Position numbers and translations under genes: made by a program. A model generated the notes under the pieces. It saw nothing but the letters and a program-made list of their open reading frames with translations, was not told the DNA's origin and searched no databases. DNA of 64,000 nucleotides, taken from the IMG/VR virus record IMGVR_UViG_3300044846_002605, positions 2,331 through 66,330 of that record. One strand, written 5' to 3'. Below, piece by piece: positions 11,395 through 60,942 of the stretch (positions within the stretch are counted from its first letter, which is position 1; every line of letters starts with the position of its first letter). The stretch comes from a virus.

Positions 11395-11395
11395 A

Positions 11396-31900: not shown

Positions 31901-33889
31901 ATAAGCACCTTGACTATTTCCCCATGCCGCACCATAAATTTTAACTTCATCATCTACTAAGAATGGTCTTGCAAACATGCAATCCGGAGAATGAAAAGTA
32001 AAGTGTTTTTTACTATAATTTGCATTAGGTGTGTAATTTATCAAACCTCCTTGAAGTGGTTCGTAACTAGTTGGCAAAGGATTAGATGAAATAAATGGAT
32101 CAGGTCTTAAATCATTAAATGGATAATTTGCATACAATGCTGTTCTGTTTGTTATTAAGTTAGGCGCATCATATTGAAACATGTTATTAATAAGCCCTTT
32201 GTATAAAACTGACTTAGATCCCGTTCTGTTGCCTCTTAAAATTTCATATCCAACAATGTTTGTAATTACATTTCCATTATTATCTACAGGCGGCTGAATG
32301 TTATCAAATCTAACACCCATTATTCTAATTTTATCTCCACCATCTTTATAATGGTTGGTGATTGTAGTAGTAGATCCACCAGAAGTAATTACATTTTCTG
32401 GAAACTTATGGTGACGAATTGGTTGTCCACATAAATTCCAATCAGGTCTACCAGGTACATTTGAGTTCCAAATTTCTGGATGTTTATCATCATATAATTC
32501 AACTGACTCCCAATAACCCATTTGTCCTTCTGCAACTAATAGTCCGCCATCAGGTGTTGGTGTATTTGGAGTTGATATTAAAGTAGCTGTATTATAAACC
32601 TCAAATACTCTTGGTGTGTAATCAGGAGATTCAATATCATTTATTGTAGCAGGACAAGGTGCAACTTCAGATATAGCACCTGCATTTCCACCAGCATCAT
32701 TTGTTAAATAAAATTGACCTGCACCGCGTCCTGGAATATGATAACTATTTGATTTATCACCTGTGTTATAGACAAACCGAATAAAAAATGAATACACTTC
32801 ATCACGCATGTATCCAATATTAGTTCCTCCGCTTTTATAGTATTCATCCTTATACTCTACACATTGCCAAAAAGTTCCAATTTGATTTGCCAAAGGTTGA
32901 TAATTAAAGTCAAACTTTGTTGTTGGCCCTACTCTTAAAGCATACTGGCCAACATTAAATATAGCTTCTGACTTATCGGGAATTGGAGTAATCACCGTTA
33001 GATCCGCTAATGGAACTACCGGAAGAGTGATGTCAATATAATCTATAGAAACAACATTCTGTCTGGTGCTATAAGTACCAATCCTTCTAGCTACAGTTTT
33101 TTCATTTATAGTTGAAATCAACACCAATTCATAACTGTCAAAATTGACATCTAAATTGGAAATGTAAATATCTATAGAGCTATTGACATTAGTATGATCA
33201 AAAAGAGTTAATGGATTAGATGGAATAAAGTAATCAGTTACTCGTTGATCATCTTCCATATAAGCTACTTGCGCTTGATATGTACCATTTAAAATACTTG
33301 CTACACCCTTTCCTTTAACAATATTAATGCATGGTGTTTCAATGAAAGATTCCAATCTAATTTTATCACAATCTAATTCATCTGTATCTACACAAGTTGT
33401 ACATCCATTTACAGTTGTGCAAATTTGTTTCCATGGAACATCTCCAATATCCAATACTCTGGATACATTGCGACCATCATCCCAATAAGCATTAAAAGAA
33501 CAATCAAAAGTTGCTCTTGTGATTCCTTTAATCAGATTATCAGTATGAAAATTTAAACATTTGTCATTTACAATAGTATTGTAAGAACAAGTGCCTTCTT
33601 TGAAAAGACCAATTTCAGAATCAGTGTTATTTGTAGAAAAAATTACCCACTTGTCTTCTTCTAAGTGTAATGCTCCAATAATTGTATATGGAACAAATGT
33701 ACAGAAGTTATTAGCAGGCTCAGTGCTAAGTTTACCTAAGTCCCCTTTTCTTGTATTGTTAATTGCGTTTCTGGCATAAGTCCATGAATTTTCCGGTAAA
33801 TGAAAATCACTTGTATCTGTTACAAGTGATTTATCAAATGTTTTTTGATTCTTAAATGTAGAACTGCCACCGCTTCTTTGCTTTGCCAT
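28982..33889 (-). CDS. Tail stabilization / muzzle protein (1635 aa)
   Basis: Motifs typical of crAss-like tail stabilization proteins (YARNA, GYMRDEVYSF, IRHHKFP, GYEILRG, LFGGDTYI, WTLSY...SFHDW); lies after the ring genes and before the cargo genes. Confidence 0.8.
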   Translation of the reverse strand: MAKQRSGGSSTFKNQKTFDKSLVTDTSDFHLPENSWTYARNAINNTRKGDLGKLSTEPANNFCTFVPYTIIGALHLEEDKWVIFSTNNTDSEIGLFKEGTCSYNTIVNDKCLNFHTDNLIKGITRATFDCSFNAYWDDGRNVSRVLDIGDVPWKQICTTVNGCTTCVDTDELDCDKIRLESFIETPCINIVKGKGVASILNGTYQAQVAYMEDDQRVTDYFIPSNPLTLFDHTNVNSSIDIYISNLDVNFDSYELVLISTINEKTVARRIGTYSTRQNVVSIDYIDITLPVVPLADLTVITPIPDKSEAIFNVGQYALRVGPTTKFDFNYQPLANQIGTFWQCVEYKDEYYKSGGTNIGYMRDEVYSFFIRFVYNTGDKSNSYHIPGRGAGQFYLTNDAGGNAGAISEVAPCPATINDIESPDYTPRVFEVYNTATLISTPNTPTPDGGLLVAEGQMGYWESVELYDDKHPEIWNSNVPGRPDWNLCGQPIRHHKFPENVITSGGSTTTITNHYKDGGDKIRIMGVRFDNIQPPVDNNGNVITNIVGYEILRGNRTGSKSVLYKGLINNMFQYDAPNLITNRTALYANYPFNDLRPDPFISSNPLPTSYEPLQGGLINYTPNANYSKKHFTFHSPDCMFARPFLVDDEVKIYGAAWGNSQGAYVEPENHPRHKFITDVSFITGIVVGFGYAITKMIGSREAKYRGYQIDNDPIFAGSSTSSGNVVPLGAVLTAAETAALGTVGVQGMADALSGQNIGVASAVGGAQTGLLTASRTAAQVPLTGVTTGFVEITYKDQDAAPGILKGALLALGNPMFLSYMAAGADTTFKLIESLGAWHQFALQYQSLCKYEKFAAPYANNRRRRINDARYLNPGVQDYSTNYIVNHIYRNETVMFDTPVNIENITGAIVDVSRPPRVSTMPADRHLDNFSRRASSHYVALKTRLRNQYGQLQSIRQLLVSSCVTPIATTNSPVLFGGDTYIGKYSEKNTLFYFQQWLNGQPDGAILNYNKQKMFEWTAFWMDTDPFDLMEFVQSVPAALQTAITSGSISTFFSSLVTPSDKHCFDRLNGQNGVFLLKRAYMYLFNSGVRDFFVESEFNVDMRDWQDTDAKKHYPILSDLKTIFNMNLIKADNYYQIDRSLSWSFMASQKIPWGVMQARDYNPLLSETCYTKYPRRLLYSLPQAAGAQNVSLAKKDQWRVFLPNNYADYESNVTSIKPINRTAALILFENQAPGMLPGVDEMQTTGGANITIGDGRLFSRQLQQLSNSELSYEYGSCQSRLSVLNTPAGVFWMNLNQGKIFCYAGGLKEISLKGNRFWLNIYLPYKLLEDFPTYSVTDNPVAGIGCQTIYDNEYSLVYFCKKDYRLKKNLPVTVEYIGGSKFLINGVFIAKTGDPLYFDDCSWTLSYDPKIEEFVSFHDWHPDLSLGAKNTFLTTKDNSIWKHNNVCNKYCNYYGEDYPFEVEFQLDNKLAVATMRNVEYYIESYVYDEQNCYDRFHVLDHGFDEAIVYNSEQVSGLLKLHLTPKNNLPLLLTFPNIQTNYINILFSKEEQQYRFNQFWDVTNDRGEYSGAEERIWMTEDNGYIRNLNPVNLNYNKQEFQRKKFRHFNNRVILKRTKNNNVEILVSLAASNQQLSHR

Positions 33890-34864: not shown

Positions 34865-35536
34865 TTATCTCAGTATATTTTGTGAATTATCTCCAGTATC
34901 TGGTGGAAGTTTGGCAAGTGTCATCAACTCTTGTTGAGTCATTTGTTCAATTTCAGCAAACATGTAATCTGGAATTGTTACATTTCTATCTTGAGCTTGT
35001 GTGCAATCAGAATCATTCTCATTACAAAAAGCATCAACCGGTTCTTCAAACATTCCTTCTACAGATACAGCATCCCAAACAATATCTGGAAAATACAAGT
35101 ACCCATTTTTGTACCAATAGTAGTGCGTCTTGTTGTATTTAAAATTTGTTGATTGTGTCATAGAAACATAAACTGCAGCCAAACATTGTTGAAACACATC
35201 GCTCCCATCAATTGGTGCAATTGTTCTAAAGATTGGACCATTACTTCCAGACATTAACTTTGGAAGTTTGTTTTTGGTTCGCATAATCTTGCATCCAGTT
35301 TTTATTCTAGCGCAGTCTGCTTCAATTCGGTCCACTTCAATTAACTCAACATACGGCAATGTTTCAAATAAGCTGTCGTACTGCATTAATTTATTTTCTA
35401 CATCTTGTCTTCTAATTAAAGCTTTTGAATACTTTATAAGCAAGCTGTAAATAAAACGGTCTGTTAAAAATGCATCTTCATTTACTAACTTGAAGACATT
35501 TCTAATTCTTGATATGGACTCTCTTATTGTTGTCAT
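34865..35536 (-). CDS. Tail ring protein
   Basis: 223 aa; RTKNKLPKL and YYWYKNGYLYF...VEGMFEEP pattern; size and position fit a crAss-like ring protein. Confidence 0.65.
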   Translation of the reverse strand: MTTIRESISRIRNVFKLVNEDAFLTDRFIYSLLIKYSKALIRRQDVENKLMQYDSLFETLPYVELIEVDRIEADCARIKTGCKIMRTKNKLPKLMSGSNGPIFRTIAPIDGSDVFQQCLAAVYVSMTQSTNFKYNKTHYYWYKNGYLYFPDIVWDAVSVEGMFEEPVDAFCNENDSDCTQAQDRNVTIPDYMFAEIEQMTQQELMTLAKLPPDTGDNSQNILR

Positions 35537-35538
35537 GG

Positions 35539-36030
35539 CTATATGTTAATATCAACAGTGGAATTATAATTTACACAAAGACATCTAGCCCAATGCTTTT
35601 TAAAATAAGCACTGGCTTGTCTTCTGAACTGTTGAAGAGGATTAAATGAAAACATGTTAGCATTTTTTACCATGGTTCTTTTGGTTTGATTAATATACAC
35701 AATTCGCATCATGTTGTTATCTGTATCCCAATTTTTATGATAAACTGTTTTTCCTGCCAACTTTGACTTAGCGTAGTCTATAGACTTACCCTTTGCTTTT
35801 CCAGCATTATTAATAAACACAGCACCAATATTTTCAGGAAGTATTACTCCATAAATATTGTTCATTGTTTCTTCTGCCATGTTTGAATTAAATGCTCTCA
35901 TGATTTTTATGATTGCAGACTTATCTAAATTGTACTTTGGGTGCAACTTATTAAAGTCTTTAACTTCTTTATAGTTAATTACTTTTCCCTTCTTCTCAGT
36001 TACTCTTGGTTTATTTAAGTCAACCTGCAT
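35539..36030 (-). CDS. Basic IHF/HU-like protein
   Basis: Likely start is ATG 36028-36030 (MQVDLNKP), because the longer track start runs through a terminator. Helix-helix followed by VILPENIGAVFI resembles divergent IHF-like genes next to crAss-like tail genes. Confidence 0.5.
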   Translation of the reverse strand: MQVDLNKPRVTEKKGKVINYKEVKDFNKLHPKYNLDKSAIIKIMRAFNSNMAEETMNNIYGVILPENIGAVFINNAGKAKGKSIDYAKSKLAGKTVYHKNWDTDNNMMRIVYINQTKRTMVKNANMFSFNPLQQFRRQASAYFKKHWARCLCVNYNSTVDINI

Positions 36031-36069
36031 ATAATATACTAATTTATCCTCAAAAATACAAATTAAATA

Positions 36070-36099
36070 GTAAAACAAACCCCAGATTGCTCCGGGGTT
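36070..36099 (-). terminator. Rho-independent terminator
   Basis: Minus strand AACCCCGGA-GCAA-TCTGGGGTT then TGTTTT: 9 bp stem with a GNRA tetraloop. Confidence 0.75.
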
Positions 36100-36140
36100 C
36101 ATCCTAGTCAGTCACATAAACCAACCTTCTGTGACATTTT
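36070..36140 (-). ncRNA. Candidate two-hairpin 3'-end-derived antisense RNA element
   Basis: Hairpin GTCACA-GAAGGTTGGTTTA-TGTGAC followed by the terminator hairpin; complementary to the start regions of three minus-strand genes (see findings). Confidence 0.3.
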
Positions 36141-36142
36141 TT

Positions 36143-37231
36143 TTAACACACTGGTGTAGGTGTCGGTATTGTTTCAACGCATGGTCCTATAAATCCGGTT
36201 AATCCGTCTATGATAATCCAAAATCCTCCAATCTCATTTGGATCATTTGCATTAATGCTAATTGGATATTCCTCCGTTGTTTTGAAAAAAGGTCGTGCAT
36301 CTTGATTACTTGATGAAACACTATCGTGAACATTAACTGCAGATTTAAAATCTGTGACTTGATGACCTTCTGTTACATTAGAAACTGCATAATTTAATGC
36401 AGATGTGCTCCACGCTCCTGGGCGGCATCCTGAAACAAAACTTTCTTCTAAATCTGCAAGACATCCCCACACTAAAGTACCTGCAGGACTAATACCAACA
36501 TTTGCAAAAGAAGTTAATACTGTATTACAACTACCGGTATCCATAGCTCTCCAGTTTAATCTCCATCCAATGCTGTAACTATTGTCTAAAACATACCCGG
36601 CAGGTAAAACTGAAGCAGGAATTACACTATTTCCATTATTAAAAGTTAAACCTCCAGATGTACTTATACTAACACCACCTGATCCAGTATATGGTTTTTT
36701 ACCATGAGCGGGAGATGTAGGAGATGATACGCCTTCATAAGTATTTGTACCTTGTTTATATAACCATGTTACAACAGAACCAACTTTAGTAAAATCTTCT
36801 AATGGGATAACTACACTACCTCTAAAGTGCAAAACATTCCCAATACGTCTTACTTGTGGTCTTTTAACCGTCATAGTAGGATCCGTAGAGTAGTGATTAA
36901 AACCAAGTAAATTTACCCATCCTGTATCTTGTACTTTTGCACTCAACACGCCTGCAGTATAACTAAGATCTACAGTTGTTGTATCTTCAATAGATGTAGG
37001 TATTCCGGCAGCACCTTGTGGTCCGGCAGGACCAATGGCTCCCGGAGTTCCAGCTGCACCACTAGCACCTTGAGGCCCTTGTACTCCTTGAGGACCAGGT
37101 GCACCTTGCAACCCTTGAATACCCTGTGGTCCAACGGGACCTTGCGGACCAGCCGGTCCAACAAATCCTCTTGGTCCTCTTAGTTTTATCTCATTGCTCT
37201 TGCAATCACAACTTCCTTTACAATTACACAT
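36143..37231 (-). CDS. Collagen-like fibre protein with C-terminal receptor-binding-type domain
   Basis: Cys-rich N-terminus ([10 protein letters not shown]), about 19 Gly-X-Y triplets, DTTTVDL neck, and DTGW...[12 protein letters not shown] head typical of phage fibre tips. Confidence 0.7.
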
Positions 37232-37243
37232 ATCATTTATTAT

Positions 37244-39013
37244 TTATGGACAAACTGGGACACTTATTCCTAAAGCTGTAAGAGCAGCAACTATTTGATC
37301 TCTATAGTAAGTTGGTGTACTTCCAGCCAGTGTGTCTAAATTACAGTTAAAGTTTATTGAGTAGTAGTCAGATACATTATTAGGAACATTGTATGCACCG
37401 TTGTTTATAAAAGTAGCTTTAGTCAACTCACGGAATCCCGGATAAAGATTAGGACCTGTATTTACTCTAAAAGCAGTTCCTTTTATTGTGTATGCAACAG
37501 TGGACATTATATTTCTTAAATAAGCAATATCTGTGTCATAGCCTGCTGTACGCGAAGCATTATTAAATGGTGCAGATCCTCCGTAACCATATATGTTAGA
37601 TTCATCAGCAAAAGTTAAATTTATTACTTGATCAACTGTTGTGTCTGTTGCTCTTTGAAAATTTCTTTCTTCTGCTAAACATCTAATAAATCTTTCATTA
37701 TAATCCCATCCTGTTCCGGAGAACATATTTAAAACCTTGACTCTTTCATTATAGAGAGTTACATCATTATTGTAAATAGGTAATAAACATGCTTGAAGAA
37801 TAGTTGATTGCATAATCTGCAAAGGTTGCAATGTTGTATTCATTGAACCTGAATTATCAAACCAAATATTTATTTCAGTAGTACTTGTTAATGGGTTTCC
37901 TTGACCACACGGAATAGAATCTGTAACAATACATTGTGGTGCACCATTACAAAAATCTACAGGTCCACCATCTGGACAAGTCCAAGTAATAGTTTCACCC
38001 GGAGCCGCAATTAATAAGGGTGGAGTTTGTATCAAACTTTCAGTAGTAAATTCAATAAATGGCGCAAAATCTGCTAATGTAACAGCAGTACTGGTCATAA
38101 ATGCATGCATTGTTTGATTTACAGGCCAAACATCTCCAGGAGAACCAACAGGTATATTATAAATTTCAGCTCCAAATGCCGCAGGTGTTCCAAAATCATA
38201 ACCGGATAATTGCAAAATATGATTTCCTGCAGGTAATGTAATTGGAAACATGTGCCACAAAGTAAAAGTTCTTGTTACACCTGCACTTTGAGGAGTACCG
38301 CTTGGATTAAATGAAGCCCATAAATTCACAAGATCAAAATTAGTTACACCTCCCATAAACGTTGAAGATGTAATACTCGCTCTAATTTGATTATCTCCTG
38401 CAATAGCAAATATGTATGTTTGCTCATTAGGTATATTAATACAAAATTCTACAGGCAACCACTGATTAATTCCATATCCTGTAGCCCATAGACCTATATT
38501 GTTTAACCTGTCATTATTAGCACCAGTGTTAACAAATACGGTATTCCCTGCTACAGCTACTTCATCAATATTTAAAAGCGTTCCAACACCTGCATTATCA
38601 TAAACTTGATAACCAAGAGTACACCCAGGTGATCCTACAGGACATAGAGTAGAATCCGACCACCCATTTAAAGGAAAAGGTTTAGCTGAAATATCTTCAT
38701 ATAATCTGGCTCCTGAACTTCCATAAGCTGGACTTTGGCCACCGGCAATAATAGGAACAGTAGTTCCACCGGTTGCAATTGCGGGAACTACGCTTGTTGA
38801 TTCACACGAATTTGTTGCAGGGTTAAATGTGTATCCATCTGGACATTGACAAGGGCATGTTATAGGACACCAATTAGTTCCATCAAAATAACTTATGATA
38901 CAAAGATTTGGATTAAGCAAACGGTAAGTTACTCCATCAATTTCCAATATGCTAATATTGCAATTACATGGATCTACCCAATTTGTACCATCAAATATTT
39001 TAAAGTTGCTCAT
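37244..39013 (-). CDS. Putative adhesin/fibre protein with Cys-rich modules, beta-sandwich region and C-terminal vWA domain
   Basis: FDGTNW twice; CQCPDGYTFNPATNSC; MIDAS-like INIWFDNSGSM and a downstream LTFADES. Confidence 0.6.
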   Translation of the reverse strand: MSNFKIFDGTNWVDPCNCNISILEIDGVTYRLLNPNLCIISYFDGTNWCPITCPCQCPDGYTFNPATNSCESTSVVPAIATGGTTVPIIAGGQSPAYGSSGARLYEDISAKPFPLNGWSDSTLCPVGSPGCTLGYQVYDNAGVGTLLNIDEVAVAGNTVFVNTGANNDRLNNIGLWATGYGINQWLPVEFCINIPNEQTYIFAIAGDNQIRASITSSTFMGGVTNFDLVNLWASFNPSGTPQSAGVTRTFTLWHMFPITLPAGNHILQLSGYDFGTPAAFGAEIYNIPVGSPGDVWPVNQTMHAFMTSTAVTLADFAPFIEFTTESLIQTPPLLIAAPGETITWTCPDGGPVDFCNGAPQCIVTDSIPCGQGNPLTSTTEINIWFDNSGSMNTTLQPLQIMQSTILQACLLPIYNNDVTLYNERVKVLNMFSGTGWDYNERFIRCLAEERNFQRATDTTVDQVINLTFADESNIYGYGGSAPFNNASRTAGYDTDIAYLRNIMSTVAYTIKGTAFRVNTGPNLYPGFRELTKATFINNGAYNVPNNVSDYYSINFNCNLDTLAGSTPTYYRDQIVAALTALGISVPVCP

Positions 39014-39016
39014 AAA

Positions 39017-39508
39017 TTATGGTGTGCATGATTGAATCCAAATATCACCAGGTCTTAGTGCATTATTTCCAGGAATAAAGTTTATACCAAATCCGTCAAT
39101 ACCGCCATATTGCGCATTAAAGTCTGCTGGAGTTGGTTGGCTAGTTTGAACAAATACAGCAACTCCGCGACCAGAAAGACCTTGATCACCTTGTAAACCT
39201 TGTGCACCAGTTGCTCCCGGTGCTCCATCATTACCGTTTGTTCCATCAATACCATTTGCTCCGGGTAATCCGCCTATTCCTGGTAGTCCTTGTGGCCCTA
39301 TTGGCCCTTGGATTCCTTGCGGCCCTTGAGGTCCGGTTAATCCAGTCAAACCTTGAGCACCAGACGGTCCTTGTGGACCAGTTAAACCAATTGGTCCTTG
39401 CTCGCCTTGATCTCCTTTATCACCTTTATAACCTCTTGGGCCACGCAGCCCTTTAGGAATTACATTGCAATTTCCAGAGCATTTATTATTTCCGCAGTTT
39501 TCACACAT
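39017..39508 (-). CDS. Short collagen-like protein
   Basis: Cys-rich N-terminus, about 30 Gly-X-Y triplets, C-terminal VFVQTSQP...RPGDIWI motif common in phage fibres. Confidence 0.75.
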   Translation of the reverse strand: MCENCGNNKCSGNCNVIPKGLRGPRGYKGDKGDQGEQGPIGLTGPQGPSGAQGLTGLTGPQGPQGIQGPIGPQGLPGIGGLPGANGIDGTNGNDGAPGATGAQGLQGDQGLSGRGVAVFVQTSQPTPADFNAQYGGIDGFGINFIPGNNALRPGDIWIQSCTP

Positions 39509-39518
39509 GTCTAAAAAT

Positions 39519-40316
39519 TTATGCTAATACAACAACTCTTACTCTTACAGGTGTTTCAACAGCTGTTATATTTAACTGAATTCGTACTGTTCCTGTTGCA
39601 TCTACTATTTTTAGATCATAACCTTGATCTGTACTAAAATATGGCAAATTTGGTATTTTGTACCAAATTCCTGAGTCTAAATAATAAACTTGAAAATGCA
39701 AATCACAAACTTCATCAACTAAACTATCATTTCCCAAACACGCAGTTGGAACCAAACCACAAGCTTCTAATTGTGGTCTAGTAATATCAATAAAATCACC
39801 ACCTAAAACTGAAAGTTCTTCATAAACAAATTTATACGCAGTTGTGCCATTTGTTCCCGGTTCACCTTGTGGACCTTCTGGTCCCGTTTCTCCTTGGATT
39901 CCTTGTGGACCTTCTGGGCCTTCCGGTCCTGGAGTTAATTGAATATTGCAAATAAAATTCACTACAGCTTCTAATGCTTCTTGTATAGCTGATCCGGCAG
40001 GAACAATTACTATATCTCCGCAAAAAATATCACTAGTGGTAACTAACCCGCTTTGTGCACAGAAATAATTTACAATTTGGTTTAGAGCTGTAGAAACAGA
40101 TGCATTCTGTGTTACTACAGTATCATTACCACATTGAATTGCAGCATCTGTATAAATTATACATTTACTGTCTGTAATTTCAGTACATGGTTGAGGTGTA
40201 GGGCACACCGGTTCCTCACAACCACAAGCACATTCACAATTAACTTGTGCAGTTGAATTGTGTACATGCGTACTTGGTACTACATGATTATTTTGTTGAC
40301 AAGATGAACATCCCAT
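39519..40316 (-). CDS. Cys-rich collagen-containing fibre protein
   Basis: Cys-rich N-terminal half with a duplicated IxCG...AL...VN(Y/F)xC unit, about 10 Gly-X-Y triplets and a beta-rich C-terminus. Confidence 0.65.
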   Translation of the reverse strand: MGCSSCQQNNHVVPSTHVHNSTAQVNCECACGCEEPVCPTPQPCTEITDSKCIIYTDAAIQCGNDTVVTQNASVSTALNQIVNYFCAQSGLVTTSDIFCGDIVIVPAGSAIQEALEAVVNFICNIQLTPGPEGPEGPQGIQGETGPEGPQGEPGTNGTTAYKFVYEELSVLGGDFIDITRPQLEACGLVPTACLGNDSLVDEVCDLHFQVYYLDSGIWYKIPNLPYFSTDQGYDLKIVDATGTVRIQLNITAVETPVRVRVVVLA

Positions 40317-40340
40317 TTTTAGTAATTTTTAATTTTATAA

Positions 40341-41168
40341 TTATGCAGGTACTGGACCACCACCGTTAGTTGCTTCCCACCATTTTAAATATGTTTCTGC
40401 AGAAGCAATTATCATTTCACAACCGTTACACTGAATAACAAGTCCCAAATTTACAATAACTCCTAAAATATTTAAGTAGTCTTCAGCAGTTAATTCTGGA
40501 TGGTTTAATTGCAGATAGTTAAACAAAATACCTAATCCGCTGTATCCATTAAATGATGAGGACTCTAAGATTCCAATTTGAAAAAGATCATCCAAATAAA
40601 AATTAGCACTTGATGAACTTGATGCATCAAACCATTGTTGGAATGCTTCATTAAAATCAGTATGACAACAAGGAAAATCATTACCACCAAGTGATTCCAA
40701 TACCTTTAACCACGTTTCAACAGTAGTCGCATGTTCTAAACAGCAAATTCTTGTTGTTGAATAACGTATAAACTCCTGTACCTGTAAAAAACTTTGCGCA
40801 CCACCTAAATAGTATATTCCATTTTTGCAATCAGGACAACAAAGATTTTTGTTATTTGAAATAGATATTCCTCCAGATAATGTTTCAATCAATGCTGTAG
40901 TTACATCTAAAGTAAATTTAAGTTGTCTATCAGGAACTGCATCAACAGGATATTTAATTCCAACTCCAGCATTAACTGCAATGTCACCTATTGGAACTTT
41001 AACAATTTCTTCTCCTTTTGAAATCTTTGCTAAAATTTGCAATACTGTAAGATTATCTGAATCAGTTCCTACCAAAGAAAATACTCCTTTCATCATGTAG
41101 ATCAAAGGATTGATACATGTAGTTACTTCACATGTACACTTACTTGTTTTACATTTTTTACAACTCAT
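40341..41168 (-). CDS. Cys-rich hypothetical protein, paralog of 41180..41908
   Basis: Shares CxxPxxY, CCPDC, PCCxTDF and ETxLKWWEAT motifs with its neighbour. Confidence 0.7.
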   Translation of the reverse strand: MSCKKCKTSKCTCEVTTCINPLIYMMKGVFSLVGTDSDNLTVLQILAKISKGEEIVKVPIGDIAVNAGVGIKYPVDAVPDRQLKFTLDVTTALIETLSGGISISNNKNLCCPDCKNGIYYLGGAQSFLQVQEFIRYSTTRICCLEHATTVETWLKVLESLGGNDFPCCHTDFNEAFQQWFDASSSSSANFYLDDLFQIGILESSSFNGYSGLGILFNYLQLNHPELTAEDYLNILGVIVNLGLVIQCNGCEMIIASAETYLKWWEATNGGGPVPA

Positions 41169-41179
41169 TTTCTTTTAAT

Positions 41180-41908
41180 TTATGCTTGTAATGGTGGTGT
41201 TACAGTTCCACATCCGCCTGTAGCTTCCCACCATTTTAAAAATGTTTCAATTGAACCAATAATTACATTGCAATCACAACAGTAAGCAACAAAACCTTTA
41301 TCTATAATGCGGTCAAATACTTCTGATAATGTTGCACCTTGCAATAAATCTTCCGGAGTATTAACAAACAATTCATAAATTTTGCAAAGCAAAGTATTTC
41401 CATCAAAACCATTTGCTTCTACAACCCCTTTATCAAGTATTCTATCTAAATTAGCAATAGTTGAAAATTGATTTAAACATGATTCAAAATCAGTTTTACA
41501 ACATTCTGGTTGATCAACTTGCCAAGCTTGATTGTATTTTAAATAAGTTTCTATACTTGCTTGAACGTTTGTACAACATGGTTGATTTGTATCATCCTTT
41601 ACCCAACCTATAGCCTCAGCTAATTTTAAAAATGATTCAACACTCGCTAAAGCATAAATTGGATTTTCAGTGCAATCAGGGCAACATACATTTGCTGCAC
41701 TTGATGCCACTAAACCTTTATCTGTTAACCTATCAAAATGTTCTGCTACAGAAGATGTGTCATCAAGTAATGCTTGATTAACCGCCATGTTCCACGCATA
41801 TGTAAATGGATCTACACATCCATCAACTATAGGAACAATCGGTGTTGGACATTCAACAGGAGTTTTAATTTTAATCGCATTGTTTTGCGGAGTACATTTC
41901 TTTTTCAT
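41180..41908 (-). CDS. Cys-rich protein with internal repeats, paralog of 40341..41168
   Basis: DRxxDKGxV three times and (A/G)S(I/V)E(S/T)(F/Y)LK three times. Confidence 0.7.
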   Translation of the reverse strand: MKKKCTPQNNAIKIKTPVECPTPIVPIVDGCVDPFTYAWNMAVNQALLDDTSSVAEHFDRLTDKGLVASSAANVCCPDCTENPIYALASVESFLKLAEAIGWVKDDTNQPCCTNVQASIETYLKYNQAWQVDQPECCKTDFESCLNQFSTIANLDRILDKGVVEANGFDGNTLLCKIYELFVNTPEDLLQGATLSEVFDRIIDKGFVAYCCDCNVIIGSIETFLKWWEATGGCGTVTPPLQA

Positions 41909-41909
41909 C

Positions 41910-42422
41910 TTATCCGCCTATTAAAAGATTAACCTGTGCTTGCAATGCAGAAATTTGTTGTTGCATTTGCGCTAAAGCATTATTCTGAGTTTGAATCAAT
42001 ATTTGTTGATCACATAGTTTAACGCCAATTGCGGTTACATACTCAGTCATTGACATAACTGTTCCGTACTGTTGTTGAAAACATGCAGCTACTGCCATTT
42101 CGCATTCAGGACAACCAGTAGTTCCACCTGCTGTTACAGATGTTCCCAAATTGACTTTTGCAACAGTATCAATAAGTAATTGAATAAGCTCAACAAAATT
42201 TGCTGGTGGACATTCTTTATCTATCAGTTCTGATAAATCATAAGATTGAACATCAAGCATTTCAAAGATTTTGCAAATTCTTTTAGCTAATTCATTTATG
42301 ACATCACTAATTGTATCACCATGACACAAATTAATGCAACATAAATCTGGTCCTTGCCATACAACGCAATTGCTTGTTGTTACAGCGCATCCAGAACTTC
42401 TAGTATTTGTTGGCTTTCCCAT
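41910..42422 (-). CDS. Cys-rich protein with C-terminal coiled coil
   Basis: CAVTTSNCVVWQGPDLCC...IC resembles the Cys module of 39519..40316; heptad-like C-terminus ALAQMQQQISALQAQVNLL. Confidence 0.65.
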   Translation of the reverse strand: MGKPTNTRSSGCAVTTSNCVVWQGPDLCCINLCHGDTISDVINELAKRICKIFEMLDVQSYDLSELIDKECPPANFVELIQLLIDTVAKVNLGTSVTAGGTTGCPECEMAVAACFQQQYGTVMSMTEYVTAIGVKLCDQQILIQTQNNALAQMQQQISALQAQVNLLIGG

Positions 42423-42428
42423 AGCTAA

Positions 42429-42440
42429 TAATATACAAAT
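42429..42440 (-). promoter_or_regulatory. Candidate phage late-promoter motif (ATTTGTATATTA)
   Basis: Related copies on the minus strand at 28940-28950, 36032-36043, 46305-46317 and 52954-52967, each in an intergenic gap just upstream of a gene. Confidence 0.45.
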
Positions 42441-42461
42441 TTTTAATTTAATTTCCTAATT

Positions 42462-43913
42462 TTAATTACAGTCTGCACCTTCAGCAAACTGCACTTGCAG
42501 TAAATCCTGAGTAGTTGTTAGGATATAAATATCAGTTGATGTTTGACCGGTTATTCCGCATACATAAACATCATAAGCTGTACTCACTTCATAAAACATA
42601 ACTGTTCTCTGAACACTAGCGCAATCCTTAAAATATAACCAACCTTCTACTCCCATTGGAATTGTTACTGAATATTGTTTACATGTGCCCGGAAGCGGTG
42701 CTATTGGACAACATGCATCTGGATCCTCCGCAATATCCATTTTTAAGATTTCATGTTCTATGGTTGATTGCATTAGATCTGTAGGACAACAGAATTGTAT
42801 TCCATATCTGAGGGCTAATACTTTTTCATAGTTTGCATCTCCAAATGCACAGAATATTTGTTCTGCATCAAAAGGTTCTGCATTATTTACAATGAAATCC
42901 GGATAAATTGTTTTGTGATTTGTAATCGGAGGAATTACTTCTGGTTTTGGCAAACATTCTTTACATGTACTCACACATTCAGTTTGTACAAAAAAGTCTT
43001 GCCAAAGTATTTCTTCCCATTCTTCAAAACACTCTGCTTCTGTTACGCGGTAGCATCCGGTAATAACATTTGCATTAATGTCTTTAATAGTTGTTAAAAC
43101 AACTTCTAAAAAGTCATCTGGATGATTGTCATTACTTGTTTCTCCTTTAAATACAAATACAGCAGGTAATCCATTTATAACCAAAGGTTCGCCTGTTGAA
43201 CAACAAGTCAATTGGTATCTTTCTTCTGGATAATTTAAAAAAGGATCTATTGTTGGAACAACTGGCTCAATTGCTTTGCAAATGTAAGATTGAAATCTTC
43301 CGCTTTGCCATGGTGTTATTGCACCTTCTTCAGCTGGAATTGAGTTTGTTGAATTAAGAGTGTCAATAATAGTTGATACATCTCCTAAAACAGTTGATGA
43401 ATACCAAACTTGATTATCTACCGAAAACCAAATAAATACAACTGGTTCTGTCCAAGTATTAAGAATCTCATAATAATTATGTCCACCGTATGAACCAGTT
43501 GGTCCTACAAAAGAATAAATAGGTTGACCTAGTGCAATATCACCAACGCCCACCCATTGAAAAAATAATGAGTTACATGAAGTATTACAATCACAGCACA
43601 TTGGTGTTGTCGTTACCGCAGTGTAAATAGCATCATACCAATTTTGTGTATTTGCTGGATCTGGTCCAGCTGGTGGATTTGCAGCTTTTAAAATAAAACA
43701 ACCATTGGTTACATTACCTGATGAATCTGTAAAACTTGTTATTATTTCAGGCTGATTTACAAGATCTATAGGCGCAATACCAAAATGAGTTCCCGTGTAT
43801 TTAATATACACAGGCTGTCCCGCATAAGGATGTCCTGTAGGATACACATACGCTTGATTGCTGCAACAATCTACAACAGTATAGTAATAAGCTTTATCTA
43901 GATCTTTAGCCAT
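42462..43913 (-). CDS. Cys-rich structural protein (possible tail hub/fibre-attachment protein)
   Basis: 483 aa with two CC...GC(F/Y)...CxxC modules and an LRYGIQFCC segment; position matches the hub genes after the auxiliary capsid gene. Confidence 0.5.
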   Translation of the reverse strand: MAKDLDKAYYYTVVDCCSNQAYVYPTGHPYAGQPVYIKYTGTHFGIAPIDLVNQPEIITSFTDSSGNVTNGCFILKAANPPAGPDPANTQNWYDAIYTAVTTTPMCCDCNTSCNSLFFQWVGVGDIALGQPIYSFVGPTGSYGGHNYYEILNTWTEPVVFIWFSVDNQVWYSSTVLGDVSTIIDTLNSTNSIPAEEGAITPWQSGRFQSYICKAIEPVVPTIDPFLNYPEERYQLTCCSTGEPLVINGLPAVFVFKGETSNDNHPDDFLEVVLTTIKDINANVITGCYRVTEAECFEEWEEILWQDFFVQTECVSTCKECLPKPEVIPPITNHKTIYPDFIVNNAEPFDAEQIFCAFGDANYEKVLALRYGIQFCCPTDLMQSTIEHEILKMDIAEDPDACCPIAPLPGTCKQYSVTIPMGVEGWLYFKDCASVQRTVMFYEVSTAYDVYVCGITGQTSTDIYILTTTQDLLQVQFAEGADCN

Positions 43914-43914
43914 T

Positions 43915-44055
43915 TTATTTCTTTATTTGTCCTTCAGCAATTTGCTGATTGACTGTATTAACACAAGCAGTGCAACAAGATTTACCATTTGTTGCATTTA
44001 CAATGTATGTTCCTGTACAAGTACATACTCCACAATTTTGACAATTTTGTGCCAT
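43915..44055 (-). CDS. Small Cys-rich protein (46 aa), not in the ORF track
   Basis: MAQNCQNCGVCTCTGTYIVNATNGKSCCTACVNTVNQQIAEGQIKK; fills the gap exactly with 1 bp spacers on both sides. Confidence 0.75.
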   Translation of the reverse strand: MAQNCQNCGVCTCTGTYIVNATNGKSCCTACVNTVNQQIAEGQIKK

Positions 44056-44056
44056 C

Positions 44057-44617
44057 TTAACAAAGTTTACATGAATAATTATCTAACAATTTTTTGGCAT
44101 AGTTGTATAAAACCATTGCCTGATCATGGTCTAAACAGTATTCAGCTTTTGCTTGAGCTGCATCTATATAGCCAGTAATCTCCATCAAAGATAAAAATTT
44201 ATTCTTAGTTTCTGGAACCGGCTCACATGCACTCAATTTAAGTTTACACCACTCCTCTTTTAGTTTTTTTCTTAAAGCTGTAACACGCAAATGATTGTAT
44301 TCAACATACATTTTATCATGCGGAGAAAGCGCATATTTGATTACATAAATTCCATCAGGTAATGAGTGAAACTCTGTACCACAACATTCAGTTTGTACTT
44401 TTAAATCACAAGCCGTGAGGTTAAAAATAAACCCTTTGTTGACTACCGGAATAGTAGTATCATTAAAAGTGACGCAATCTCTATATCCAGGTACTAATAC
44501 TTGGACAGTAGGGCAAACATAAGGCATGAGTGAGTCATACACACTTGTGTCTTCTATACGAAGAACACAGTCAGTCATAATGTTTGGAATATTTAAACTT
44601 AATGAATTTGTTGCCAT
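44057..44617 (-). CDS. Putative tail hub / collar protein
   Basis: 186 aa; LRIEDTSVY and LPDGIYVIKY motifs plus a helical C-terminus, like crAss-like genes following the auxiliary capsid gene. Confidence 0.55.
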   Translation of the reverse strand: MATNSLSLNIPNIMTDCVLRIEDTSVYDSLMPYVCPTVQVLVPGYRDCVTFNDTTIPVVNKGFIFNLTACDLKVQTECCGTEFHSLPDGIYVIKYALSPHDKMYVEYNHLRVTALRKKLKEEWCKLKLSACEPVPETKNKFLSLMEITGYIDAAQAKAEYCLDHDQAMVLYNYAKKLLDNYSCKLC

Positions 44618-44629
44618 AAGATTTTGATT

Positions 44630-44670
44630 AAAAAAAATGGAGAATAGAGAAAGCCTCCATTCTCCATTTT
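44630..44670 (-). terminator. Rho-independent terminator after the 44692..46272 gene
   Basis: AAAATGGAGAAT / ATTCTCCATTTT inverted repeat followed by a T-run on the minus strand. Confidence 0.7.
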
Positions 44671-44691
44671 AGGAAGATATTTTTTACAATC

Positions 44692-46272
44692 TTAAAGTAC
44701 TGCTGGTGTGTACGCAGTGTGACCGAAAGTTTGTAATGTTACTACACCACCAACCGCAGCTGCACCCAACCATGTTGCCATGAATGTTTCAAATGCTGTT
44801 GCTGTAGCAGCAGTAACATAGATGTTCAATGCATATTGATCATCATCATAAACACCGCTAGGGTTGTTATAACGAGGAACGCTGTGTTGAATTACATAAC
44901 GTGTGTACAATGCATTACGGTTAACCGCATTGAAGTACTGATTTCCTTGAGTAATCTCACGGATACGCGGATCATCAGAGAAATGATTTTGCAAGTATGA
45001 CTCATCAAGAATCACATCGCGCAATACAGTTTCACCATAACCTTGTCCTGCAAATCCTGCGTACTCTTTAGTAGCACAAAGAGCAGAGAAATCACATGGA
45101 TCACCAGTCAAATCTGTCAATGACAAGTTCATTTGAATAACTTCTTTCTCATAGAAATCAGAATTCTGGAATGAACAGTTACCAAATTTAGTTTCAACAT
45201 AAGCACCAATCAAACGGATACCAGCTAATGCGCCAGCAATATGTCCTGGAGATACATAAGTTGACCAAACGTTAGTTGCAGGGAAACCTGCAGCAACAGC
45301 TTCAGCAGCAGTAGCAAACAACGGAACACCTGTTTGAGTATAAACGATTGGACGAACAAAGTACTGTAACCATACATCATTTACGATTTGGTTAGCCCAG
45401 TCAATCATTACCAATGTAGAATCTACATTTCCTGGTACAATTGTACCTGTTGGACAACAACCTGTATAAGCTGCAAAAGTTTTGTACAAGTCATGGTTCA
45501 AGTAACGCAATACTGGTGAACCCCACAAGTCAATACGAAGATTGTATGTTTCTCCACACACAAAGTTGAATTTACATGGAGCAGATCCTGCAGCGTTATA
45601 TTTAATCGTTGCTACAGTAACCGTAGCCGCTGTACCTGCAACAAAAGGAATTGAACTTGGTAAACCTAATACATTACCAACTGTATAACCTTGACCAGGT
45701 TGTGTAATAGTTACAGCTGTAACAACACCACCCGCAACAACTACAGTTGCAAACGCACCAACACCTGAACCACCTGTAAGAGCAACGTTAGTGTAAGTAC
45801 CATTGGTATAACCTGTACCTGCAGTAAATGTTACTGTTGCAATTGAATCAGAGTTCCAGTTAGTGTTTCCTAAATGCCAAATTGATTGCTCTGGAGCAGC
45901 ACCTGTCATTTTAGAAAATTTGTGAACAAATCGCGGATTGATCATCTTTGACTTGTTAGACTCTTTGTATCCTCCGTGAAAAGGACCAATCTTATCATCA
46001 GTAAACAAAGATGCAGCAGCAAAAACCAATGGTTTTCCTGCAATAACTTCCGCAGATGCGTTGTTTACAGATAAGTAAGTGTTTGGATTAAAGAAACCAT
46101 AGGTTCCTACTCCTAATCCATTTGGTGCTACAGCATTTGCTAAAGCTGATGTTGGTACACCTGCGTCAAGCAAAAATCCGTTATTCACCGCATTCTGAGT
46201 ACCTGGTACTGCAGCCTGTGTTGCTTTGGTTCCCACAAATGATTTGCGGTAAGCATGATTAAAATAACTCAT
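44692..46272 (-). CDS. Abundant structural protein, probable auxiliary capsid (decoration) protein
   Basis: 526 aa; own upstream intergenic region and terminator; codon style similar to the MCP gene; position downstream of MCP and ring genes. Confidence 0.6.
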   Translation of the reverse strand: MSYFNHAYRKSFVGTKATQAAVPGTQNAVNNGFLLDAGVPTSALANAVAPNGLGVGTYGFFNPNTYLSVNNASAEVIAGKPLVFAAASLFTDDKIGPFHGGYKESNKSKMINPRFVHKFSKMTGAAPEQSIWHLGNTNWNSDSIATVTFTAGTGYTNGTYTNVALTGGSGVGAFATVVVAGGVVTAVTITQPGQGYTVGNVLGLPSSIPFVAGTAATVTVATIKYNAAGSAPCKFNFVCGETYNLRIDLWGSPVLRYLNHDLYKTFAAYTGCCPTGTIVPGNVDSTLVMIDWANQIVNDVWLQYFVRPIVYTQTGVPLFATAAEAVAAGFPATNVWSTYVSPGHIAGALAGIRLIGAYVETKFGNCSFQNSDFYEKEVIQMNLSLTDLTGDPCDFSALCATKEYAGFAGQGYGETVLRDVILDESYLQNHFSDDPRIREITQGNQYFNAVNRNALYTRYVIQHSVPRYNNPSGVYDDDQYALNIYVTAATATAFETFMATWLGAAAVGGVVTLQTFGHTAYTPAVL

Positions 46273-49599: not shown

Positions 49600-49636
49600 T
49601 TTTTGTTGGTTTATTATTTATGACTGACAAATATAA

Positions 49637-49992: not shown

Positions 49993-51609
49993 TTACAATG
50001 ATCCTCCCGTAATTGGGTTTCTCATCACAATTTTCAAGACTTTAGTAGGATCTTCTACTTTGATTGCAGGCATTGCCTGAGTCATGTAGATTTGGTATCC
50101 ATTGAAGTTACCTGAAGAAGCAAATCCTTGAGTACGTCCCATATAGTCCATAGAACCATTTACATAACGCCATACAAGATCTTTGTTCCAAGCACACTTC
50201 AACAATTTAATGTTGTCTTGTCCGTTCTCAGTAATATCAAAGATGATAAATGAGTAAGAAGACAAACGGAAACCGTCAATGATTGGGTTTTCAATCTCGT
50301 TGTTTTGCAAGTTGTCAAATGCAGGGTTCAATACAAACTTCACATTTGCCAAGAAAGGAATTGTGTAGCTTGTGAAAGAGAATCCATAAGACAAGTCCAT
50401 TCCTGAACCTTTTACAGCTTCCAATTCTTTTGCGTTCATTACCAATCCTGATGCAAAAGCCTCACGCTTGATTGCTTCATTGATAATACGCATACCACCC
50501 ATACCTGTTTGAACAATCAATTCACGTTTTGGATCTGGTCCTTGGAAGTCAACTTTACCATTGTAGAAGTTGAAAATTTCAGAACGGAAGATGTCAAGAC
50601 GGAAATCAGATTTGTTGTAAACATGCTTGTAAGACAAGTCTAATTGTTTCCACAAACCAACTGACAAACGAAGATCATCTGGACCATCTTGCTTGATACG
50701 TCCACCTTTACCCCACATAAGGTAAGTTTCAATATCATAAGCAATTTTAGAAAGGTGAGCTGCTTCCAACTTAGTGATGAAAGAACGAACCAAGTTTCCA
50801 TTGTCCATTGCTTTTTTCACATAACCTTGTCCTTTAGCAGCAACCATTCCTTCCAATGTATTGATAGATGGATCCATTGACGTATCAAAGTTTTTCCAAA
50901 TCTCAGTTACAGGAATTGAACCGTCAGCATTCATACCACCTTTCTCCATCAATTTCACTTTAGATGAAATTGTATAGTGAACGTGTGCATCTGCATTACC
51001 AACATAGTTGTAGAACTCACGAGTTGTGTGAGTCATAGAAAGATCTGAGTAACGCTCACCATACTCACCACGCGCAGAACCTACACGGAAGAAGTAAGTG
51101 TTGTTAGTCAAGAAACGGTTATCAAAAGTTGCAGCTGAATCATTGTTCGGCATTTGAACTGTATAGATAAATCCGTCACCCATATCCAAGATGTCTTCAT
51201 CTGTGATATAAAGTTCTTTTCCATTGAATTTGTCATAAGTGATGATGTCACCATGTCCAAATACACGCTTGTTCAATTTGATTTTGAACGGAGTACCATC
51301 TACACCTTTTACAGTGTTAGTCGGATCAAGATCTTCCATAATGAAAGGAAGTTCTTCAGATACAGGTGTTGACCACTTGTATTCACCACGCGGGTGGTTT
51401 ACCTCAATAACATTCTTTCCGTTAAAAGAAGACATTTGATAAAGAGGCATTTCCAACTTTTTAACTTGAGCCCAAAGTTCAATTGGACCTAAGTCATCCG
51501 GTTGTGCATCCTTCATCAAATTCATCAAGTGGTAAGAATCCACATGAGAGCTTGCTGTGTAATAGTTGTCCCGAAGGAACATACCATTATTTAAAACTGG
51601 TGTACTCAT
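49993..51609 (-). CDS. Major capsid protein
   Basis: 538 aa after the portal and acidic scaffold-like genes; EYKW, LMWGKGG, GLWKQL, VQTGMGG, FVLNPAFD and IKVEDPTK motifs of crAss-like MCPs; strongly biased codon use. Confidence 0.85.
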   Translation of the reverse strand: MSTPVLNNGMFLRDNYYTASSHVDSYHLMNLMKDAQPDDLGPIELWAQVKKLEMPLYQMSSFNGKNVIEVNHPRGEYKWSTPVSEELPFIMEDLDPTNTVKGVDGTPFKIKLNKRVFGHGDIITYDKFNGKELYITDEDILDMGDGFIYTVQMPNNDSAATFDNRFLTNNTYFFRVGSARGEYGERYSDLSMTHTTREFYNYVGNADAHVHYTISSKVKLMEKGGMNADGSIPVTEIWKNFDTSMDPSINTLEGMVAAKGQGYVKKAMDNGNLVRSFITKLEAAHLSKIAYDIETYLMWGKGGRIKQDGPDDLRLSVGLWKQLDLSYKHVYNKSDFRLDIFRSEIFNFYNGKVDFQGPDPKRELIVQTGMGGMRIINEAIKREAFASGLVMNAKELEAVKGSGMDLSYGFSFTSYTIPFLANVKFVLNPAFDNLQNNEIENPIIDGFRLSSYSFIIFDITENGQDNIKLLKCAWNKDLVWRYVNGSMDYMGRTQGFASSGNFNGYQIYMTQAMPAIKVEDPTKVLKIVMRNPITGGSL

Positions 51610-52925: not shown

Positions 52926-53053
52926 CTTTGTTGGTTTTAGTACTGACTGTAATTAATATAAGCAAATTTATTCAATTGTAAACATATATTGTTTAACTAT
53001 TTTTGGTTAGCTAAAAAGTTTTTTCCATACTATAGTTAAAACATGTAATATTC

Positions 53054-60669: not shown

Positions 60670-60942
60670 TTACTCTTCTTTTGTTTCTTGTTCTACATTA
60701 TTTTTTTCTGCTTCTTCTTCTTCAGCCGCGTCTTGCATAGCTTGGTTAATTTGCATCATTCTCATAGAATAATCAAATGCTTCAAACTGTGCTTTTTTAA
60801 TACGAGCTTTGTACTCTTCAACTGAACATTGAGCAGCAAGAACCTTTTCTTGACTCTTGTAATATGCAATTGTTTTTTCTTGCATTGCGCGTATCTCTTG
60901 TGGAGTGTACTCGCGTTCTTCTTGGTTGGTTTGTTCTGACAT
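60670..60942 (-). CDS. Hypothetical coiled-coil protein
   Basis: 90 aa, first gene after an AT-rich intergenic region. Confidence 0.65.
   Translation of the reverse strand: MSEQTNQEEREYTPQEIRAMQEKTIAYYKSQEKVLAAQCSVEEYKARIKKAQFEAFDYSMRMMQINQAMQDAAEEEEAEKNNVEQETKEE

Follow-up and report, generated by a model that had tools for sequence, protein, structure and literature searches.

In this analysis, we identified a conserved RNA hairpin in the 3′ untranslated region (3′ UTR) of a tail-fibre gene of a crAss-like phage and found that its invariant loop word, GUUGGUU(U), is the exact complement of AACCAAC, the invariant word of a leader tag carried by head-module genes of the same phage clade. The sequence under study, called the window here, is a single stretch of 64,000 nucleotides of virus DNA. 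The hairpin is a conserved RNA structure and is a member of no described RNA family, and the antisense relation of its loop to the clade-wide leader tag is beyond chance. Its reading as an antisense RNA located in a 3′ UTR appears well supported by comparison, and a putative role of the element as a trans-acting regulator is the best explanation of the data. We give an even chance to the full proposal, namely that the loop of this tail-fibre 3′-UTR RNA pairs with the AAACCAAC leaders and represses or tunes the translation of the head module.

The minus strand carries all long open frames of the window, and gene order together with PHROG profiles reveals the layout of a crAss-like phage (Table 1). 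The virion-gene block ends (window 1-19714, minus strand) in two giant frames, one of 2772 aa and one of at least 3798 aa that is open at the window end; these could be the packaged proteins of crAss-type phages. Leptolyngbya phage Lbo-JY46 is the only cultured phage with a full-length match to the capsid protein, at 26% identity; the Cellulophaga and Azobacteroides crAss-like phages match the capsid protein only partially, and a nucleotide search with window positions 35000-38000 against deposited phages gave no match. Much closer is a 117-kb record, 98% complete (G001), which shares about 99% protein-level identity with the window genome. Some spacers of the window may be coding: the 143-nt 'intergenic' stretch at 44056-43914 (minus strand) holds an ATG-opened, Cys-rich small frame of about 45 aa with C-x-x-C pairs, which falls below the size limit of the ORF list, and the spacers at 48606-48483 and 48113-47987 resemble Lys-rich coding sequence whose starts would lie further upstream.

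Table 1. Features of the window discussed in the text (positions are those of the window; duplex energies are for pairing with the element, ranked among 43 start regions).
Feature	Position	Strand	Basis or remark
Conserved gene 3′ of the element, 163 aa from ATG 36030	35539..36030	-	phrog_12177; opens a new unit after the terminator
Intrinsic terminator, 16 pairs, T-rich tail	36106-36071	-	common to the fibre mRNA and the element
Single-stranded tail TGACT	36110-36106	-	with the 3′ arm complementary to leader word GTCAGTCA
3′ arm TGTGAC	36116-36111	-	
Loop seed GGTTGGTTT, complement of leader word AAACCAAC(C)	36118..36126	-	complementarity to three starts
Loop GAAGGTTGGTTTA, 13 nt	36129-36117	-	
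5′ arm GTCACA	36135-36130	-	
Anti-leader hairpin, 6 bp, 13-nt loop	36135-36111	-	fold; covarying stem pairs in relatives
Stop codon TAA of the fibre-like gene	36145-36143	-	sequence; followed by 7 A/T bases, then the hairpin
Last gene of the tail-fibre block, 362 aa	36143..37231	-	PHROG tail-fibre families, best E = 4.5e-19; hairpin in its 3′ UTR
Collagen-like tail-fibre proteins, several, including the 36143-37231 gene		-	PHROG profiles
Virion proteins downstream of the fibre genes		-	PHROG profiles
Site 1, GTCAGTCA-N8-AAACCAAC-AAAAA-ATG	49605..49628	-	5 nt before ATG 49599 of a 330-aa gene; duplex -25.3 kcal/mol, rank 1/43
Major head protein	49993-51609	-	PHROG profile
Site 2, AGTCAGT-N4-AAACCAAC-AAAG-ATG	52930..52948	-	4 nt before ATG 52925; duplex -21.1 kcal/mol, rank 2/43
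Promoter-like boxes TAAATTTG (52970-52963) and TATATTA (52960-52954)	52954..52970	-	read from sequence; just upstream of the site 2 leader
Portal	53054-55789	-	PHROG profile
Terminase	55789-58014	-	PHROG profile
Site 3, ATG-TCAGAAC-AAACCAACC	60924..60942	-	start codon ATG 60942 and codons 2-7; duplex -20.9 kcal/mol, rank 3/43

The 77-nt 3′ UTR of the fibre gene folds into the hairpin and the terminator at -28 kcal/mol (z = -4.4), and none of 200 shuffled sequences folded as well. The terminator has the core stem CCCCGGA/TCTGGGG with the loop GCAA at 36090-36087, and the loop of the first hairpin is predicted to be unpaired except for two or three weak pairs. A first-pass annotation of this DNA had noted a hairpin, a tail and a GCAA terminator in the 3′ region of the fibre operon, had put the seed in a hairpin loop and had proposed a 3′-UTR origin. 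All of its words and coordinates are as it described them, the fold places the seed within the 13-nt loop, and the element lies between the stop codon of the fibre gene and that gene's own terminator. An intrinsic terminator was rejected as the whole explanation of the structure: the anti-leader hairpin is followed by UGACUAGG, which contains no T-run, and it is the second hairpin (36106-36071) that has the make-up of a terminator. When the window was compared with Rfam, no family scored at or above its gathering threshold, and at E values of up to 10 the stretch 35950-36250 yields only chance-level matches to unrelated families; Rfam 15 lacks the motif, which could become a new family there. 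A promoter of the element's own was also rejected as its main source. The only candidate is a weak sigma-70-like match inside the fibre gene (36237-36210), and because the upstream gene differs between relatives, a conserved promoter at this place is hardly possible. A plus-strand promoter and leader, or a plus-strand small ORF from GTG 36131, fared no better: the sequence immediately 5′ of it is the terminator hairpin, there is no ATG further on, and an antisense frame would enter fibre sequence that is not conserved.

Relatives were located in three independent ways, namely through the neighbouring 223-aa virion protein, through a degenerate pattern search of IMG/VR, and through contigs of a distant clade. 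At all 13 protein-anchored loci, the element was found in the same place, even where the end of the upstream gene is unrelated; the exact loop 8-mer is present at 12 of them, the remaining one (L008) reading GGTTGGTTG. The pattern search matched 50 contigs, of which 47 were kept as real and three (L094, L112 and L121) were judged to be chance matches in coding sequence. A long open frame ends no more than 45 nt upstream in 46 of the 50 matches, and a terminator-like hairpin with a T-run lies within 80 nt in 44. Since the pattern itself prescribed the loop word of the 47 contigs, stem positions 1-4 and the CTGAC tail, evidence free of this bias comes from pairs 5-8, from the protein-anchored loci and from the distant clade. 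In that clade (about 70% capsid identity), nine places holding GTTGGTTT were examined; five of them, one per contig, proved to be the element and the other four coding sequence, so that five of five contigs carry the hairpin, with a stop codon before it and a terminator behind it. The loop word GTTGGTT shows no change at the 13 protein-anchored loci or in the five distant-clade contigs. Five of five whole genomes contain one element each; the stop codon of a variable gene lies 1-7 nt upstream of it, and a conserved gene follows after about 100 nt; in G002-G005, N-termini homologous to that of the 163-aa gene lie about 100 nt downstream of the element.

The stem changes in sequence while its pairing is kept. 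A stem of at least five pairs encloses the loop in each of the 41 distinct sequences, the variants being GTCACA/TGTGRC, GTCATAG/CTGTGAC, GTCATGG/CYATGRC, GTCACG/CGTGRC and GTCATG/CATGRC, and, around the same loop in the distant clade, GTTRCAG/CTGTRAC, AGCGG/CCGCT and GTTACG/CGTAAC. Covariation was scored on 36 distinct rows of the window's clade; five distant-clade rows, which MAFFT had misplaced, were left out and analysed by script. Helix 1 is paired in 99.5% of the cells of these 36 rows, slid controls pairing in only 26-51%. Pair 11-34 is CG in 23 rows, UA in 7 and UG in 6, and pair 12-33, which the search pattern did not constrain, is AU in 20, GC in 10, GU in 5 and other in 1. Both the covariation score and the count of double changes lie above those of all 500 shuffles (0/500 reached the score). 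Pair 8-37 is U.G in 19 of the 36 rows, where the other strand would read C.A, and these wobbles, together with others, fit only an RNA of the gene-sense strand. Conservation in relatives, without which the first-pass annotation would have abandoned its proposal, and covariation, which it had suggested looking for, were therefore both found. Lbo-JY46 (L202) has TTTGTTGGTTG inside an A/U stem, ATATAAA/TTTATAT, at about 33660-33730, with a terminator-like hairpin behind it; this may be a chance occurrence in an A+T-rich genome.

Read in reverse complement, the element gives GTCAG-N3-10-AAACCAAC, and this combination occurs in sense orientation at three gene starts of the window (Table 1). GTCAG-N2-11-AAACCAAC has four matches over both window strands, with half-word spacers of 3, 4, 5 and 10 nt, compared with 0.04 expected (sd 0.20, largest 1; 100 dinucleotide-preserving shuffles). 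The bipartite motif therefore exceeds chance, a point on which the first-pass annotation had made its proposal depend. AAACCAAC alone occurs nine times on both window strands, with GTCAG close upstream in four cases, and in G001 its intergenic or start-site copies are limited to the same three sites and the inverted element. The site 1 gene is the first after a terminator at 49665-49638, the site 2 gene encodes a 427-aa scaffold-like protein and heads the capsid operon, and the site 3 gene (90 aa) heads the terminase/portal block; all three genes come first after a terminator or a long spacer, each behind a promoter-like box. The matches at three gene starts had been reported in the first-pass annotation with correct coordinates, and sites 1 and 2 do precede their ATG, but site 3 is coding sequence and reads M-S-E-Q-T-N-Q. 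This N-terminus, M-S-E-(Q)-T-N-Q, is kept in G002, G003 and G005, and its Thr-Asn pair is written ACC-AAC in four distinct genomes. In the window, ACC makes up 7% of the Thr codons and AAC 30% of the Asn codons; that ACC-AAC is kept despite the rarity of ACC points to selection that would act on the nucleotide word itself. A second gene of G001, at about 4685 on the minus strand and outside the window's contig, starts M-S-E-N-T-N-Q, written ATG-TCAGAAAAC-ACCAACC, and belongs to an opposite-strand block; this look-alike of site 3 is a possible fourth target.

The leader tag is widespread at the clade's head genes: AACCAAC lies no more than 16 nt before the ATG at the scaffold-gene position at 71 of 79 related capsid loci and within 700 nt after the capsid gene at 60 of 71 related loci. 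The word sits 0-16 nt before a few start codons, those of operon-first genes of the head module. In G002-G004, complete genomes at a greater distance, five to eight leaders of this type are present, all on the late strand and upstream of the single element. The leaders of G006, G007 and G010 read AAACCAAAC or AAACCAAA and the loop is unchanged, so that pairing there needs a bulge or amounts to 7-9 bp. No AACCAAC leader was found next to the head genes in the 36 kb of Lbo-JY46 that were examined. In several relatives, the gene that follows the capsid gene has a tRNA-like 3′ end (GGTTCGATCCTG...) immediately 5′ of its AACCAAC leader (G002 at about 47500, L080 at about 4700, and the G019 and G024 loci, L193 and L196); the window has a terminator where these relatives have the tRNA-like 3′ end.

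Translation starts in this genome lack Shine-Dalgarno (SD) words. A word resembling the SD sequence (GGAG, GAGG or AGGA at -18 to -4) is present at only one of the 44 window starts, and these starts are A-rich at about -14 to -11, at -7 and at -4/-3, a pattern that suggests a host without SD use. The A-rich, SD-less starts of the phage resemble initiation of the Bacteroidota type.

When the element was paired with the start regions of the window, along the lines that the first-pass annotation had recommended, sites 1-3 took the first three places by duplex energy among 43 regions, the next region reaching -19.0 kcal/mol. Of 300 shuffled sRNAs, which matched the element in mononucleotide composition only, none reached the third-best energy and two reached the best. 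Two helices, of 8-10 bp and 5-8 bp, are predicted with each of the three sites. When the energy scan took in all 64 kb of the sense strand, site 1 alone came out on top, sites 2 and 3 (-21) lying below several coding windows (-23 to -24 kcal/mol). The region ranked fourth, the start of the fibre-like gene itself (37231, minus strand; -19.0), has a 13-nt run, CATAAATAATAAA, in common with the site 1 leader.

Comparison between genomes gave a divided picture of the pairing. Cognate sRNA-leader pairs hardly differ in energy from non-cognate ones, either at site 1 (-23.65 vs -23.4 kcal/mol, n = 16, p = 0.36) or at site 2 (-22.4 vs -22.0 kcal/mol, n = 20, p = 0.29), which means that there is no genome-specific co-evolution beyond the shared invariant words. 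At the level of clades, the two partners of the second helix occur together: CTGAC follows the stem at all 13 protein-anchored loci, the window's sub-clade has the CUGAC tail as well as the GTCAG leader word, and the distant clade has neither. Within the sub-clade, GTCAG is exact in 14 of 20 site 2 leaders, partial in three and absent in three. The purine before CUGAC, opposite a leader U, is A or G, which is neutral for RNA pairing and would be a mismatch for a DNA motif. Formation of helix 2 needs the 3′ arm of the hairpin to be opened. The trans-acting, 3′-UTR-derived sRNA put forward by the first-pass annotation thus stands in part: a conserved 3′-UTR hairpin has a loop that complements clade-wide leaders, but cognate pairs have no advantage and the AAACCAAAC leaders are not compensated in the loop.

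The element lies 13-25 kb downstream of its candidate targets, behind the terminators at 49665-49638 and 44670-44634. Between the fibre unit and the leader-bearing units lie the latter, a strong terminator, and a promoter-like box near 42440, so any pairing would be in trans; pairing between the 5′ and 3′ ends of one transcript was considered and judged unlikely in view of the same terminator. Upstream of the site 2 leader, a TTTTG-N0-3-TATATTA box is present not only in the window but also before the orthologous leader in most relatives, and we infer that it is a promoter. The GTCAG word of site 1 shares bases with a promoter-like TAnnTTTG box and may therefore be missing from the primary transcript. 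Before other operon-first genes, the TTTTG-N0-3-TATATTA box is also seen at 42440-42430, 46310-46295 and 36050-36033 (minus strand), often preceded or overlapped by TAnnTTTG. The box ends 1-7 nt before ATG 42422 and ATG 36030, a distance that would mean nearly leaderless mRNAs or a mis-set start.

In the mechanism that we propose, the 3′ end of the tail-fibre mRNA would carry an antisense module made up of a 6-8 bp hairpin with the loop GGUUGGUUU, a single-stranded CUGAC tail and an intrinsic terminator. The element would be made as the 3′ end of the fibre mRNA and could act within that mRNA or after trimming to an RNA of about 70 nt. Among public sequencing runs looked up for window positions 35001-45000, neither an RNA run nor any other was listed, which speaks neither for nor against such an RNA. 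The loop of the element would pair with the A/C-rich AAACCAAC, which at sites 1 and 2 immediately precedes the start codon and at site 3 immediately follows it; in the sub-clade, the 3′ arm and the tail could add a second helix with GUCAGUCA further upstream. The seed would then cover about -13 to -5 of an SD-less, A-rich leader and reduce 30S loading; since these genes are SD-less and reliant on open A-rich leaders, covering the leader should lower ribosome loading. In this way, tail-fibre transcription would feed back on the translation of head genes. That the RNAs meet, that their pairing matters and that its effect is repression are steps that we infer. A broader reading, to which we give somewhat less than an even chance, is that this large lineage of uncultured crAss-like phages uses AAACCAAC as a private tag, instead of an SD sequence, on the first genes of its head operons, together with one antidote hairpin in the tail-fibre 3′ UTR that would throttle or time head-protein synthesis.

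The hairpin might instead serve the fibre mRNA in cis, by stabilising its 3′ end, by marking a place for processing or by acting as the operator of an RNA-binding protein; the complementarity of the loop to the leaders would then not be used for pairing. Its place, 1-7 nt after the stop codon and directly before the terminator, is typical of elements for 3′-end stability, and the lack of cognate-specific co-evolution and the uncompensated leader variants speak in the same direction. However, a stabiliser needs no invariant 8-nt loop, a chance match between the most conserved loop word and the most conserved leader word is unlikely (roughly 1e-4 for a 7-8-mer, by our estimate), and the joint appearance and disappearance of the CUGAC tail and the GTCAG leader word between clades would be left unaccounted for; a role in cis alone is therefore rather improbable in our view. 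Slightly less probable again is that the pairing is real and has another outcome, such as shielding of the 5′ end that protects or activates the message, tethering of fibre and head mRNAs, or a 5′-3′ contact within read-through transcripts. Helix 2 would lie at the extreme 5′ part of the site 2 leader if the transcript begins, as we presume, about 7 nt after TATATT, and termination between site 1 and the element, at 44670-44634 and at other places, may be leaky. Against this, the seed would cover the very region before the ATG, about -5 to -13, that is needed for ribosome loading in SD-less mRNAs, and the strength of the 44670-44634 terminator and the separate box near 42440 argue for distinct units.

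Readings at the level of DNA fit the variation poorly. The first-pass annotation had offered as its alternative an orientation-independent protein-binding site, that is, a motif recognised in DNA by a binding protein of the phage or its host and located at three promoters and again after the fibre gene, and the bipartite word is indeed found on both strands near promoter-like boxes. A DNA operator should have fixed spacing and be conserved equally on the two strands; here the spacing of the half-words varies within one genome, and the inverted copy is part of a covarying hairpin whose frequent U.G pair would be a mismatch in DNA or on the other strand. Moreover, half of the relatives' inverted copies read GTCAGCC, compared with GTCAGT in the leaders, and the plus-strand copy has no promoter-like box upstream. 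With variable spacers and strand-specific wobbles both arguing against it, we regard such a site as very improbable. It is scarcely credible that the conserved block is a recombination boundary for the swapping of fibre genes, free of any RNA function: the upstream gene does differ among close relatives in which the hairpin, the terminator and the downstream gene are kept, but an anchor for homology would keep its sequence, whereas here the stem changes with its pairing intact and the loop is invariant. DNA inversion sites were likewise rejected, since the copies have only 8+5-8 nt in common and their spacers differ. The antisense reading, in which the fibre 3′ UTR would pair with head-gene leaders, is the one that we favour.

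To our knowledge, phage-encoded regulatory RNAs described so far are mostly concerned with lysogeny, immunity or the control of host genes. Searches of full-text literature returned no description of the element; AAACCAAC turned up there only in primers and in unrelated papers. In the accessible part of a 2025 review of phage sRNAs, the terms 'crAss' and 'structural genes' do not occur (PMC12197685), and another paper, in its accessible part, treats host phase variation and not phage RNAs (PMC8375218). If the broader reading of a private tag and its antidote is true, the phage would possess an internal RNA circuit that balances head and tail production and that is conserved from 66% to 99% capsid identity. 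For the abundant, uncultured crAss-like group, it would be new to find the structural operons of a lytic phage regulated by a conserved RNA of the phage itself. Such an RNA would act on SD-less translation by way of a common leader tag, and a single hairpin with a single 8-nt tag would then provide a simple, testable handle on the ratio of head to tail proteins.

Base-pairing sRNAs derived from 3′ UTRs are well known in bacteria, CpxQ, SroC, DapZ and MicL being of this type. Like them, the element lies between a stop codon and the intrinsic terminator of the mRNA itself, and it has a conserved, accessible seed upstream of the terminator hairpin that is complementary to translation-initiation regions. 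It differs from them in being encoded by a phage of lytic type, in having that phage's own structural operons as candidate targets and in carrying the seed in a hairpin loop; moreover, its host system is probably SD-less.

Among phage RNAs, the c4 antisense RNA of phages P1 and P7, credited to Citron and Schuster in 1990, reportedly uses two short stretches to pair with a leader and to cover the ribosome-loading site of the downstream gene; it is said to lie upstream of its target in the same transcript and to control immunity (ant). The complementarity of our element to leaders is similarly bipartite and would similarly cover the ribosome-loading site. In contrast to c4 RNA, it matches no Rfam family, and it is located at the 3′ end of a different, late, downstream unit and has several candidate targets. 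DicF of the Qin prophage is, according to the accessible part of the review cited above, an untranslated product of a polycistronic phage operon that has a terminator-like end, pairs with mRNA and blocks translation; it targets host genes (ftsZ and others) and depends on Hfq (PMC12197685). The element resembles DicF in being untranslated, borne by a phage operon, ended by a terminator and proposed to pair with mRNA; unlike DicF, its candidate targets are phage head genes, and the two have no sequence similarity.

A further parallel is offered by the seed itself, which lies in a hairpin loop and is complementary to translation-start regions. The same arrangement is known from the loop-seed sRNAs of Bacteroides thetaiotaomicron, such as GibS, whose loop seed pairs with translation-start regions in Hfq-independent hosts without SD use. 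The sRNAs of the GibS type are chromosomal and independently transcribed, whereas the element described here is phage-borne and forms part of a 3′ UTR, and its conservation extends over a large clade of phages.
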